From Mobula hypostoma (lineage: Eukaryota), in the NCBI RefSeq assembly GCF_963921235.1, contig NC_086097.1:170812001-170876000 (forward strand): a stretch of 64,000 bases of DNA, read 5' to 3'. The position numbers and the translations under genes are program-made. The notes under the pieces are model-generated. The model did no database searches, was not told the origin of the DNA, and saw nothing but the letters and a program-made list of their open reading frames with translations. Shown here one piece after another: positions 28,995-41,977 of the stretch. The first letter of the stretch is position 1, and the number at the start of each line of letters is the position of its first letter.

Positions 28995-29032
28995 CAGTCG
29001 ACGTTTCAGGCCGAGACCCTTCGTCAGGACTA
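28995..29032 (-). ncRNA. Minimal type-I hammerhead ribozyme motif (intact core), minus arm of PLE insertion 1
   Basis: Exact reverse complement of 32587-32624. Confidence 0.8.
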
Positions 29033-30099
29033 ACTGAAGGAAGAGTGAGTAAGGGATTTGAAAGCTGGAGGGGGAGGGGGAGATGCAAAATGATAGGAGA
29101 AGACAGGAGGGGGAGGGATAGAGCCAAGAGCTGGACAGGTGATAGGCAAAAGGGGATACGAGAGGATCATGGGACAGGAGGTCTGGGAAGAAAGACAAGG
29201 GGGGGGCGGGGGACCCAGAGGATGGGCAAGAGGTATATTCAGAGGGACAGAGGGAGAAAAAGGGGCGTGAGAGAAAGAATGTGTGCATAAAAACAAGTAA
29301 CAGATGGGGTACGAGGGGGAGGTATAGCCTTAGCGGAAGTTAGAGAAGTCGATGTTCATGCCATCAGGTTGCAGGCTACCCAGACGGAATATAAGGTGTT
29401 GTTCCTCCAACCTGAGTGTGGCTTCATCTTTACAGTAGAGGAAGCCGTGGATAGACATGTCAGAATGGGAATGGGATGTGGAATTAAAATGTGTGGCCAC
29501 TGGGAGATCCTGCTTTCTCTGGCGGACAGAGCGTAGATGTTCAGCAAAGCGGTCTCCCAGTCTGCGTCGGGTCTCGCCAATATATAAAAGGCCACATCGG
29601 GAGCACCGGACGCAGTATGTCACCCCAGTCGACTCACAGGTGAAGTGTTGCCTCACCTGGAAGGACTGTTTGGGGCCCAGAATGGTGGTTAGGGAGGAAG
29701 TGTAAGGGCATGTGTAGCACTTGTTCCGCTTACACGGATAAGTGCCAGGAGGGAGATCAGTGGGGAGGGATGGGGGGGACGAATGGACAAGGGAGTTGTG
29801 TAGGGAGCGATCCCTGCAGAATGCAGAGAGATGGGGGGAGGGAAAGATGTGCTTAGTGGTGGGATCCCGTTGGAGGTGGCGGAAGTTATGGAGAATAATA
29901 TGTTGGACCCAGAGGCTGGTGGGGTGGTAGGTGAGGACCAGGGGAACCCTATTCCTAGTGGGGTGGCGGGAGGATGGAGTGAGAGCAGATGTACGTGAAA
30001 TGGGGGAGATGCATTTAAGAGCAGAGTTGATAGTGGAGGAAGGGAAGCCCACCCAGCCACACCCCTCCCCCCTCTGATCCCAGCTCTCATCCGTGCCAG

Positions 30100-32292
30100 G
30101 TCTTTACCATCCCCTCCGACCTTCAACTGTCAAAGGCAGAACACTCTGTTCTCAGTAAGGGCCTCACCTTTGTCCCCCCTTTGCCCACACCTCAGCGAGT
30201 TCCGTGTTCGCCATGATGCGGAACTTTTCTTCCGCCGTCTCCGTCTCCGAGCCTACTTCTTCGGCAAGGACTCTTCCACCCCCACCGATGACCCCTTCTC
30301 CCGTCTTCAACCCTCCTCTTCTTCATGGACACCCCGCTCTGGTCTTCTGCCTGCTCTGGATCTTTTTATTGCTAACTGCCGACGGGACATCAACCGTCTC
30401 AACTTCACCGCACCTTGTCCCCATTCCAACCTCACTCCTTCGGAATGCTCTGCTCTCCATTCCCTCCACACTAATCCTAACCTTATTATTAAACCCGCCG
30501 ATAAGGGAGGTGCTGTTGTAGTCTGGTGTACTGACCTCTACCTTGCCGAGGCACAGCGACAACTCGCGGATACCTCCTCTTATTTACCCCTCGATTGTGA
30601 CCCCACTAAGGAGCACCAGGCCATTGTCTCCCACACCATCACCGACTTTATCCACTCAGGGGATCTCCCATCCACTGCTACCAACCTTATAGTTCCCACA
30701 CCCCGCACGTCCCGTTTCTACCTCCTACCCAAGATCCACAAACCTGCCTGTCCTGGCAGACCGATTGTCTCAGCTTGCTCCTGCCCCACCGAACTCATTT
30801 CTGCATACCTAGACATGGTTTTATCACCCCTTGTTCAATCCCTTCCGACCTATGTTCGCGACACTTCTCACGCTCTTAAACTTTTCGATGATTTTAAGTT
30901 CCCTGGCCCCTGCCGCTTTATTTTCACCATGAACGTCCAGTCCTTATATACTTCCATCCCCCATCAGGAAGGTCTCAAAGCTCTACGCTTCTTTTTGGAT
31001 TCCAGACCTAATCAGTTCCCCTCTACCACCACTCTGCTCCGTCTAGCGGAATTAGTCCTTACTCTTAATAATTTCTCCTTTTGCTCCTCCCACTTCCTCC
31101 AAACTAAAGGTGTAGCTATGGGCACCCGTATGGGTCCTAGCTATGCCTGCCTTTTTGTTGGGTTTGTGGAACAATCTATGTTCCATGCCTATTCTGGTAT
31201 CTGTCCCCCACTTTTCCTTCGCTACATCGACGACTGCATTGGTGCTGCTTCCTGCATGCATGCTGAGCTCGTTGACTTCAATAACTTTGCCTCCAACTTT
31301 CACCCTGCCCTCAAGTTTACCTGGTCCATTTCCGACACCTCCCTCCCCTTTCTAGATCTTTCTGTCTCTGTCTCTGGAGACAACTTATCCACTGATGTCT
31401 ACTATCAGCCTACTGACTCTCACAGCTATCTGGACTATTCCTCTTCTCACCCTGTCTCTTGCAAAAACGCCATCCCCTTCTCGCAATTCCTCCGTCTCCG
31501 CCGCATCTACTCTCAGGATGAGGCTTTTCTTTCTAGGATGAGGGAGATGTCTTCCTTTTTTAAAGAAAGGGGCTTCCCTTCCTCCACTATCAACTCTGCT
31601 CTTAAACGCGTCTCCCCCATTTCACGTACATCTGCTCTCACTCCATCCTCCCACCACCCCACTAGGAATAGGGTTCCCCTGGTCCTCACCTACCACCCCA
31701 CCAGCCTCCGGGTCCAACATATTATTCTCTGTAACTTCCACCACCTCCAACGGGATCCCACCACTAAGCACATCTTTCCCTCCCCCCCTCTCTCTGCATT
31801 CCGCAGGGATCGCTCCCTACACAACTCCCTTGTCCATTCGTCCCCCCCCCATCCCTCCCCACTGATCTCCCTCCTGGCACTTATCCGTGTAAGCGGAACA
31901 AGTGCTACACATGCCCTTACACTTCCTCCCTTACCACCATTCAGGGCCCCAAACAGTCCTTCCAGGTGAGGCAACACTTCACCTGTGAGTCGACTGGGGT
32001 GATATACTGCATCCGGTGCTCCCGATGTGGCCTTTTATATATTGGTGAGACCCGACGCAGACTGGGAGACCGCTTTGCTGAACATCTACGCTCTGTCCGC
32101 CAGAGAAAGCAGGATCTCCCAGTGGCCACACATTTTAATTCCACATCCCATTCTCATTCTGATATGTCTATCCACGGCTTCCTCTACTGTAAAGATGAAG
32201 CCACACTCAGGTTGGAGGAACAACACCTTATATTCCGTCTGGGTAGCCTCCAACCTGATGGCATGAACATCGACTTCTCTAACTTCCGCTAA
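30100..32292 (+). pseudogene. PLE reverse transcriptase + GIY-YIG endonuclease ORF, 5'-truncated, broken only by two C-homopolymer frameshifts
   Basis: Motifs LSKGLTFVP, IKPADKGGAVVV, PKIHK..GRPIVS, GVAMGT, RYIDD, LPFLDL, Cys linker CKRNKCYTC and GVIYCIRCSRCGLLYIGETRRRLGDRFAEH...VATHF. Frameshifts at the C runs ~30174-30179 and 31842-31850. Confidence 0.9.
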
Positions 32293-32586
32293 GGCTCCAC
32301 CTCCCCCTCGTACCCCATCTGTTACTTATTTTTATGCACACATTCTTTCTCTCACTCTCCTTTTTCTCCCTCTGTCCCTCTGAATATACCTCTTGCCCAT
32401 CCTCTGGGTCCCCCCCCCCCTTGTCTTTCTTCCCGGACCTCCTGTCCCATGATCCTCTCGTATCCCCTTTTGCCTATCACCTGTCCAGCTCTCAGCTCTA
32501 TCCCTCCCCCTCCTGTCTTCTCCTATCATTTTGGATCTCCCCCTCCCCCTCCAACTTTCAAATCCCTTACTCACTCTTCCTTCAGT

Positions 32587-39832: not shown

Positions 39833-40217
39833 TTATTTGTTTGTTCGTTTTGTATTTGCACCATTTGTTGCCTTTTGTTATTTGTCTGTTGCAATGGGTG
39901 CCTTTTCATTCATTCTATGGATTTATTGAGAACTTTGAATGCCTTTGAGGCTCTGACACATTTTTAAAATATATGGGAATGAAGGGTTTATGGGGAAACA
40001 GTTAGAAAAGAGGAGCCTAAGATCAGTAAGCCAGTGATGGGCAGGCTAAGGTTGGTGTCATAGAGTTATACATTATGGAAAGCAGGCCCTTCAGCCCAAC
40101 TGGTCCGTGCACAATACAGCAAACAACAGGAATTCTGCAGATGCTGGAAATTCAAGCAACACACATAAAAGTTGCTGGTGAATGCAGCAGGCCAGGCAAC
40201 ATCTCTAGCAAGAGGTG

Positions 40218-40255
40218 CAGTCGATGTTTCAGGCCGAGACCCTTCGTCAGGACTA
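40218..40255 (-). ncRNA. Minimal hammerhead motif variant (AUC triplet)
   Basis: Reverse complement reads tAGTC CTGACGA a GGGT ctcg GCCT GAAA CATC GACTg. Confidence 0.65.
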
Positions 40256-41939
40256 ACTGAAGGAAGAGTGAGTAAGGGATTTGAAAGTAGGAGGGGAAGG
40301 GGGAGATCCAAAATGATAGGAGAAGACAGGAGGGGGAGGGATGGAGCCAAGAGCTGGACAGGTGATAGGCAAAAGGGATACGAGAGAATCATGGGACAGG
40401 AGGTCCGGGAAGAAAGACAAGGAGGTGGTGGGGGGGGACCCAAAGGATGGGCAAGAGGTATATTCAGAGGGACAGAGGGAGAAAAAGGAGAATGAGAGAA
40501 TGAATGTGTGTATAAAAATAAGTAACAGATGGGGTACGAGGGGGAGGTGGGGCATTAGCGGAAGTTAGAGAAGTCGATGTTCATGCCCTCAGGTTGGAGG
40601 CTACCCAGACGGAATATAAGGTGTTGTTCCTCCAACCTGAGTGTGGCTTCATCTTTACAGTAGAGGAGGCCGTGGATAGACATGTCAGAATGGGAATGGG
40701 ATGTGGAATTAAAATGTGTGGCCACTGGGATATCCTGCTTTCTCTGGCGGACAGAGCGTAGATGTTTAGCAAAGCGGTCTCCCAGTCTGCGTCGGGTCTC
40801 GCCAATATATAAAAGGCCACATCGGGAACACCGGACGCAGTATATCACCCCAGCCGACTCGCAGGTGAAGTGTCGCCTCACCTGGAAGGACTGTTTGGGG
40901 CCCTGAATGGTGGTAAGGGAGTAAGTGTAAGGGCATGTGTAGCACTTGTTCCGCTTACACGTTTCTCCCCCATTTCACGTACATCTGCTCTCACTCCATC
41001 CTCCCGCCACCCCACTAGGAATAGGGTTCCCCTGGTCCTCACCTACCACCCCACCAGCCTCCGGGTCCAACATATTATTCTCCGTAACTTCCGCCACCTC
41101 CAACGGGATCCCACCACTAAGCACATCTTTCCCTCCCCCCCTCTCTGCATTCCGCAGGGATGGCTTCCTACGCAACTCCCTTGTCCATTCGTGCCCCCCA
41201 TCCCTCCCCACTGATCTCCCTCCTGGCACTTATCCGTGTAAGCGGAACAAGTGCTACACATGCCCTTACACTTCCTCCCTTACCACCATTCAGTGCCCCA
41301 AACAGTCCTTCCAAGTGAGGCAACACTTCACCTGTGAGTCGGCTGGGGTGATATACTGCGTCCGGTGCTCCCGATGTGGCCTTTTATATATTGGCGAGAC
41401 CCGATGCAGACTGGGAGACCGCTTTGCTGAACATCTACGCTCTGTCCGCCAGAGAAAGCAGGATCTCCCAGTGGCCACACATTTTAATTCCACATCCCAT
41501 TCTCATTCTGATATGTCTATCCACGGCTTCCTCTACTGTAAAGATGAAGCCACACTCAGGTTGGAGGAACAACACATTATATTCCGTCTGGGTAGCCTCC
41601 AACCTGATGGTATGAACATCGACTTCTCTAACTTCCGCTAATGCCCCACCTCCCCCTCGTACCCCATCTGTTACTTATTTTTATACACACATTCTTTCTC
41701 TCACTCTCCTTTTTCTCCCTCTGTCCCTCTGAATATACCCCTTGCCCATCCTCTGGGTCCCCCCCCCACCTCCTTGTCTTTCTTCCCGGACCTCCTCTCC
41801 CATGATCCTCTTGTATCCCCTTTTGCCTATCACCTGTCCAACTCTTGGCTCCATCCCTCCCCCTCCTGTCTTCTCCTATCATTTTGCATCTCCCCCTCCC
41901 CCTCCCACTTTCAAATCCCTTACTCACCCTTCCTTCAGT

Positions 41940-41977
41940 TAGTCCTGACGAAGGGTCTCGGCCTGAAACGTCGACTG
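41940..41977 (+). ncRNA. Minimal type-I hammerhead ribozyme motif (intact core)
   Basis: Identical to 32587-32624. Confidence 0.8.

Follow-up and report, generated by a model that had tools for sequence, protein, structure and literature searches.

A 64,000-nt stretch of the Mobula hypostoma genome (RefSeq assembly GCF_963921235.1, contig NC_086097.1, positions 170,812,001 to 170,876,000, forward strand; hereafter the window, numbered from its first letter) contains six minimal hammerhead ribozyme motifs. The motif sits in the pseudo-long terminal repeat (pLTR) of an element with a reverse transcriptase (RT) and a GIY-YIG endonuclease (EN), here assigned to the Neptune-type Penelope-like retrotransposons. 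From the positions at which its copies begin and end, we consider it probable that reverse transcription copies uncut RNA, with priming at two internal positions ~65 and ~103 nt beyond the predicted cut, and that the six motifs are the end-repeat hammerheads of three head-to-head insertions. Copy ends further suggest that the front of the motif likely marks the start of the copied RNA.

Six Minimal Hammerhead Motifs

Each motif opens with the 5′ strand of stem I, followed by CUGA(C/U)GA and an extra A; stem II (4 bp), GAAA, C, and GUC come next, and the 3′ strand of stem I closes it. Coordinates run from the stem I 5′ strand through the stem I 3′ strand; signed positions are relative to the predicted cut, with 0 denoting C17 of GUC and +1 the base after it, which in the copy at 32588 is window position 32620. 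Three copies are intact: 28996–29031 (minus strand; predicted cut after 29000), 32588–32623 (plus strand; predicted cut 32619/32620, the A at 32588 being position −31), and 41941–41976 (plus strand). Two, at 36332–36367 and 40219–40254 (both minus strand), carry an ACAU variant, a CpG transition that breaks the palindrome. The sixth, 38606–38641 (plus strand), has GUG at the cleavage triplet and is predicted to be inactive. An earlier sequence-only reading of the window had described these six motifs and their states, the extra A after A9, the G-U or G-C closing pair of stem II, the loop-less ACGU, and the cut at 32619/32620, all of which we confirm; its loci were also right, although its positions lay one base outside the true span.

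Five of the six copies keep the core CUGANGA...GAAA...UH with UC, and one has UG. Helices I and II are 4 bp each and open at helix I, and both form in the fold of the isolated 36-mer (all folding results here are nearest-neighbor predictions). In a conservation set of 157 copies spanning the motif (46 young, 111 old), A occupies the extra position between 9 and 10.1 in 45/46 young and 102/111 old copies, and the palindromic, loop-less helix III is ACGU in the majority of young and old copies alike. These features support the proposed identification as minimal type-I, dimer-type hammerheads of a Penelope-like element, a motif that is as such already known (PMC4209133). The six window copies are likely fossils without activity.

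The motif is not a chance occurrence, since a relaxed descriptor returned 42 matches in 1.22 Mb (116 random 10-kb stretches plus the window), 41 of them from this repeat group, vs. 0–1 matches in each of five shuffled controls. An Rfam scan gave no hammerhead family among four matches at E ≤ 1, as expected for a motif without helix III. Profile matches in the window total 17: the six motifs and 11 additional relatives that are more decayed.

Three Head-to-Head Insertions of a Probable Neptune-Type Element

The six motifs lie in six arms that form three head-to-head pairs, with the arms pointing outward and one target-site duplication around each pair (15 nt, about 15 nt and degenerate, and 12 nt). 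Each pair combines an arm ending at +60 to +68 with one ending at +102 to +111. Insertion 1 joins a left arm (28935–30050, minus strand; 5′-truncated, ending at +65 without a tail) to a right arm (30051–32722, plus strand; 5′-truncated, ending at +103 with a tail) between 15-nt duplications at 28920–28934 and 32723–32737. Its right arm contains a partial RT frame (30053–31969, plus strand) and, in another frame, a Cys linker with the GIY-YIG domain (31768–32292, plus strand). The 38-nt “tail” (32685–32722, plus strand) is present on one arm only, and full-length copies continue it into the 5′ part of the open reading frame (ORF). Just 5′ of the motif, a pyrimidine tract ending in CAG (32560–32585, plus strand) resembles a splice acceptor and is predicted to pair with the ribozyme core; the equivalent acceptor is used at one array elsewhere in the genome. 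Insertion 2 consists of a left arm ending near +60 (36277–38429, minus strand) and a tailed right arm (38439–38748, plus strand), flanked by a degenerate 15-nt duplication (36262–36276 / 38749–38763; 13/15 identical). Insertion 3 has a tailed left arm ending at +103 (40120–40961, minus strand) and a right arm ending at +68 (40954–42040, plus strand), within a 12-nt duplication (40108–40119 / 42041–42052).

Coding features identify the host element. Pfam placed GIY-YIG at or above cut-off in 4/13 frames and RVT_1 below cut-off in 2/13; the translated RT region carries a YIDD motif, and a C-x4-C-x2-C linker precedes the endonuclease domain. RT followed by a C-terminal GIY-YIG domain, together with the pLTR/tandem organization, the inverted copy, and the one-sided tail, is the arrangement of endonuclease-bearing (EN+) Penelope-like elements. 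A CX2-5CxxC zinc-finger-like linker between RT and EN is a mark of Neptune and Nematis elements (PMC8557442), and the reports drawn on here list only Neptune and Poseidon from vertebrates; on these two grounds the element appears to be of Neptune type. The six copies are inverted arms of coding-element fragments, not the non-coding tandems of short hammerhead units that define non-LTR retrozymes; a single locus outside the window, L421 (below), is of that kind.

Elsewhere in the genome, element units of 3,510 nt are arranged in tandem. One very young tandem of this unit (L061-L062, G000:C40:574001-584500; 99.5% identical) holds three motifs and has an inverted copy adjoining it. Full-length copies continue past +103 into the ORF, and the frame is open from +57 in 2/7 copies examined. 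The family is very abundant: a profile search gave 233 matches in 1.16 Mb, which extrapolates to several hundred thousand genome-wide, and a whole-genome exact count found 44,749 copies matching −31 to −2.

Copies End at Two Sites Past the Cut

The sequence-only reading proposed that, when a tandem or read-through transcript is cleaved as a dimer, the resulting ends become those of the linear template, and placed the cut ~103 nt before the tailed end. That distance describes three arms, whose ends lie ~102–111 nt past the cut; it does not describe their shorter partners. Among 52 randomly sampled arms (identity ≥85%), 22 end at +55 to +76, 25 at +92 to +114, and none at +77 to +91; the remainder include one arm reading into the ORF and one that was script-trimmed to +5 though its raw match reached +23. 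No 3′-end class at the cut was present among these arms. Cleavage-set termini thus find no support in 3′ ends that lie 55–76 or 92–114 nt past the cut, nor in full-length copies that run through the tailed “end.” In PAc, the Poseidon element of Anolis carolinensis (Frangieh et al. 2024, PMC11167929), RT likewise starts at two internal sites with the tail between them, and the two 3′-end classes downstream of its cut are ~35–40 nt apart, as here.

Copies Often Begin at the Front of the Motif

Starts of copies concentrate upstream of the cut. Of 48 random arms not cut by the edge of a stretch, none starts at −3 to +3, 15 start at −33 to −4, and 2 at −60 to −34; among 85 targeted arms, found with downstream-only queries, 21 start at −33 to −24 and 7 at −3 to +3. 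Genome-wide, 3,806 apparent starts fall at −31, with true ends in 29 of the first 30 inspected and in 17/20 further C-preceded matches (one of these 50 belonged to another family, L373), and 3,888 fall at −30 (true in 25/30). The 1,232 apparent starts at −32 were true in 20/20, yet a chance T before −31 would by itself produce about that many. As shares of copies reaching the position, starts amount to ~8% at −31, ~7% at −30, and ~3% at −32, and about 15% of young copies reaching −30 stop at −30 or −31. Among 41 solo copies whose 5′ end lies at −30 to −32, 27 are flanked by a target-site duplication of at least 8 nt (one doubtful) and so represent whole insertion events.

The cut itself is seldom a start. 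At +1, 1,090/90,373 copies are preceded by A or G; 30 of these, on inspection, resolved into 16 point changes, 2 internal deletions, and 12 starts, giving starts at +1 in ~0.5% of counted young copies, in a count that omits T-preceded starts and blunt palindromic junctions. Inverted junctions account for nine of the 12 starts, and short GA/GAC overlaps explain most of these. Overall, 5′ ends are ~10 times commoner at −30/−31 than at +1. Among copies reading into the ORF (the first 40 of 411), 9 start 3′ of the cut, and the 31 that reach it all cross it; none of the 40 starts within 4 nt of it.

We therefore regard cleavage-made ends for linear templates as largely refuted, and the model as very improbable. 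It draws on the constraint of the motif between families (see below), on tandems with successive motifs, on the seven targeted arms, and on an inverted pair, L138, whose blunt junction is compatible with two +1 ends. Opposed to these are the missing 3′-end class at the cut, the absence of starts there among the random arms and the read-through copies, and the rarity of +1 starts, mostly inverted junctions, relative to those at −31.

Other explanations of the ends at −30/−31 were rejected. Spliced host exons do not lie upstream, where the DNA is an inverted arm or duplicated target. An alternative cut at the GUU just before −31 was dismissed on inspection: no stem I or III is possible and older families do not retain the triplet. 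An alignment artifact of subfamily divergence was rejected for young copies, whose upstream flanks are mutually unrelated. A cap-derived G before −31 was also rejected, not being seen in the first 100 matches or in 27 duplicated junctions. Four further 5′ ends fall at −255/−256 (L016, L090, L213, L408), possibly a second preferred start or stop.

Start Site or Barrier at A−31

We read short copies as probable run-offs: the RNA behind them would have its 5′ end at A−31 or close to it, most likely a transcription start, to which we give about an even chance. A−31 falls in an Initiator-like YYANWYY word kept in the majority sequence of the three large subfamily clusters. A roadblock or processing event is nearly as likely: splicing factors on the tract and acceptor may stop RT, or complementary DNA (cDNA) may be trimmed to the base of the 36-nt hairpin, a reading we hold to be a serious contender though somewhat short of an even chance. 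The acceptor at −34/−33 is used in a splice-like junction (L421, below), the predicted 36-mer rod has its base at −31, no cap G is seen, and a shoulder of ends extends over −34 to −60. Contrary to a roadblock, the boundary is sharp at −31 rather than −33 and matches the A of the Initiator-like word, and an RNA hairpin would be expected to stop RT on its 3′ side (+5), where ends are rare.

Several observations weigh against templates that are uncut and start at −31. Seven of the 85 targeted arms begin within 3 nt of the cut, six of them in inverted pairs (0/48 random arms), and the L138 pair has the exact junction expected from two templates cut at +1, ambiguous though it is owing to the palindrome around the cut; cleaved RNA may serve as an occasional template. 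Only 6 of the 31 crossing read-through copies start at −27 to −38, and many templates must begin further upstream, because 13 extend beyond −330. Cap signatures are absent, the bases before −31 being 29 G, 38 A, and 33 C in the first 100 matches, and no lone-G filler occurs among the 27 duplicated junctions. The omissions of the +1 count and the predictive nature of all folding results bear in the same direction. In Drosophila virilis Penelope, moreover, the helix I front is an intron end ~120 nt 3′ of the start site (PMC4209133, PMC2377424), which favors a splice-site reading and, with it, the roadblock.

An Array of Hammerhead Units with a Splice-Like Junction

One insertion outside the window, L421 (G000:C2:157816300-157818300), contains ~4.1 repeats of a 310-nt unit within a target-site duplication. 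Its three full units differ at 0–1 positions; it starts at +41, ends at +66, and crosses an intact motif four times. At the unit boundary, +276 (with GT as the next bases in the element) is linked to −33 (with the pyrimidine tract and CAG before it), a GT-AG arrangement. This signature occurs in 1 of 4 short tandem joins examined, at a single locus. The other three (L422, L423, L424) join the ORF start to the pLTR in units of ~266, 341, and 427 nt without splice signals.

The junction suggests that the L421 template was spliced and uncut, and possibly circular; it fits either a back-spliced circle that RT copied in rolling-circle fashion or a long-tandem transcript that was forward-spliced before being copied. 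A different kind of circle, proposed in PMC4209133, would arise if the ribozymes excised a unit-length RNA that was then re-ligated, with RT starting internally and crossing a seamless junction, so that no DNA trace remained. Such a circle is compatible with copies crossing the cut and with the 3,510-nt tandems, and L421 suggests that RT can copy a repeated or circular template ~4 times. It has no end at −30/−31, however, and leaves that pile-up unexplained; the L421 junction is GT-AG rather than a ribozyme cut, and PAc insertion in vitro needs no active ribozyme (PMC11167929). We judge this circle improbable.

Constraint and Predicted Folding of the Motif

The motif is better kept across families than the sequence downstream. 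Majority bases differ between young and old copies at 2/36 motif positions vs. 19/61 downstream positions (Fisher P = 0.004), which places the motif under constraint between families, as judged from this sequence comparison. The two differing positions are N7 and the stem II closing base (G-C/G-U). Intact copies make up 22/46 of the young group, and most decay there is at CpG, the pattern expected of dead copies.

What the constraint preserves can be read in two ways. The motif may no longer be a working ribozyme in this lineage and be kept as a promoter or protein-binding sequence, an account we find unlikely. No compensatory double change occurs in the stems among the 157 copies, the only stem change being the one-sided G-C/G-U and the stems being otherwise invariant between family majorities; A6 is C in 19/111 old copies, concentrated in one cluster (11/31). 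Both findings count against selection as a ribozyme. Predicted folds point the same way: the best monomer fold of the 36-mer is a rod with the core paired to the cut site (−10.0 kcal/mol). For the dimer, the active topology reaches −9.5 kcal/mol, vs. −28.3 for the best fold. Against a vestigial motif, the only young–old majority differences are ones that hammerheads tolerate, and the PAc motif cleaves with protein (PMC11167929).

Substitutions of C17 by A or G offer a related observation, also cited for a vestigial motif: in one sample (L251-L280), 14/16 are to G, all on one subfamily background (cf. window 38606–38641). A cleavage-dead GUG lineage may, on this pattern, have transposed.

Sequence context further affects folding. 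With at least 40 upstream bases, predicted stem I and II probabilities drop from ~0.5 to ≤0.02, because the upstream pyrimidine tract pairs with the core in the predicted structure.

Other Features of the Window

The insertions seem to be intronic in a cadherin gene: insertion 1 ends ~135 nt 5′ of a cadherin-like exon (32860–33030, plus strand; Pfam E 3.4e-4, below cut-off). In a host read-through pre-mRNA, the inverted arms would pair with each other into kilobase double-stranded RNA.

Decayed hammerhead-bearing relatives lie at 3113–3215, 26268–26349, 33659–33743, 43875–44713, 48186–48252, 52046–52132, and 52353–53236; two of them keep GIY-YIG-region similarity to the young element (~65% DNA identity). 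Short fold-back insertions of an older subfamily, at 7489–7702 and 47265–47453, have their turning points inside the hammerhead (about −20/−14 and −16/−8). An imperfect inverted repeat of ~147 nt at 24080–24226 gives a weak, below-threshold match to an Rfam microRNA model and is probably a miniature inverted-repeat transposable element (MITE).

Discussion

We propose that the element’s enzyme nicks both target strands and primes at two sites on uncut RNA, which would yield head-to-head arms with a one-sided tail. In read-through RNA, the downstream ribozyme would be folded off by the pyrimidine tract, leaving only the 5′-terminal one able to fold; it would do so as a dimer, probably assisted by protein. 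Under this model, the ribozyme would likely clip a 31-nt leader from the element mRNA, as turnover or as a translation switch, rather than making template ends.

A more elaborate version is offered tentatively, as a conjecture we would not favor over its alternatives. The transcript would start at the first base of the hammerhead, which would double as an Initiator; the upstream tract would fold internal ribozymes off, and only the 5′-terminal one would cut the capped leader once the element’s protein binds, a self-limiting switch. The tract would also act as the acceptor giving 310-nt circles copied round by RT, so that retrozyme-like arrays would arise by splicing, not by ribozyme ligation.

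Much of this architecture has precedents. Minimal hammerheads (min-HHR) were described in the pLTRs of metazoan Penelope-like elements, including fish Neptune, by Cervera and De la Pena (2014, PMC4209133), who reported low dimer activity and put forward the circle hypothesis. The copies here share with min-HHR the type-I order, core, extra base between 9 and 10.1, and 4-bp helix I; the palindromic, loop-less 15.2-16.2 segment (C-G-U-C rows for fishes and lamprey in the supplement); and motifs lying close together on opposite strands. They differ in helix II, which is 4 bp with 1–2 G-U pairs here vs. 7–8 bp in schistosome families, and in a far higher copy number, the 44,749 exact 30-nt matches comparing with ~4,000–9,000 motifs reported for coelacanth and Xenopus (PMC4209133).

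PAc provides a functional comparison. Ribozyme mutants leave its insertion unaffected, cleavage needs protein, and the published RNA-seq account shows no ends at the cut (PMC11167929). As here, a hammerhead lies at the pLTR–ORF junction and copies are made across an uncut ribozyme. PAc belongs to the Penelope/Poseidon clade and its ORF begins inside stem II, whereas the present element has the Cys linker and a frame opening at +57; the main text of PMC11167929 reports no 5′-end pile-up at the ribozyme front, unlike the pattern found here.

Complex insertions of EN+ elements (Craig et al. 2021, PMC8557442; Arkhipova et al. 2013, PMC3846280) resemble those described here in 5′ truncation, adjoining inverted copies, partial tandems, a 30–40 bp tail at one end only, and duplications of ~9–15 bp, but here turning points and solo 5′ ends concentrate at a fixed place. 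L421 resembles metazoan non-LTR retrozymes (Li, Clavereau and Pollet 2026, bioRxiv 10.64898/2026.07.22.740005) in its tandem 310-nt hammerhead units from the pLTR region, and differs in its GT-AG splice-like junction and its single insertion with a target-site duplication. Our literature search found no report of 5′ ends piling up at the motif front and no paper on Penelope hammerheads in elasmobranchs, though subscription papers or supplements could hold one.

The role of hammerheads in Penelope-like elements is still open in the accounts cited (PMC8557442, PMC11167929). The motif and the architecture are known, and the map of copy ends is the part worth testing. With copies this abundant, the insertion ends of the family make up a base-resolution record of germ-line RNA templates; that record counts against cleavage making template ends and points to A−31 as either an RNA start or a barrier.

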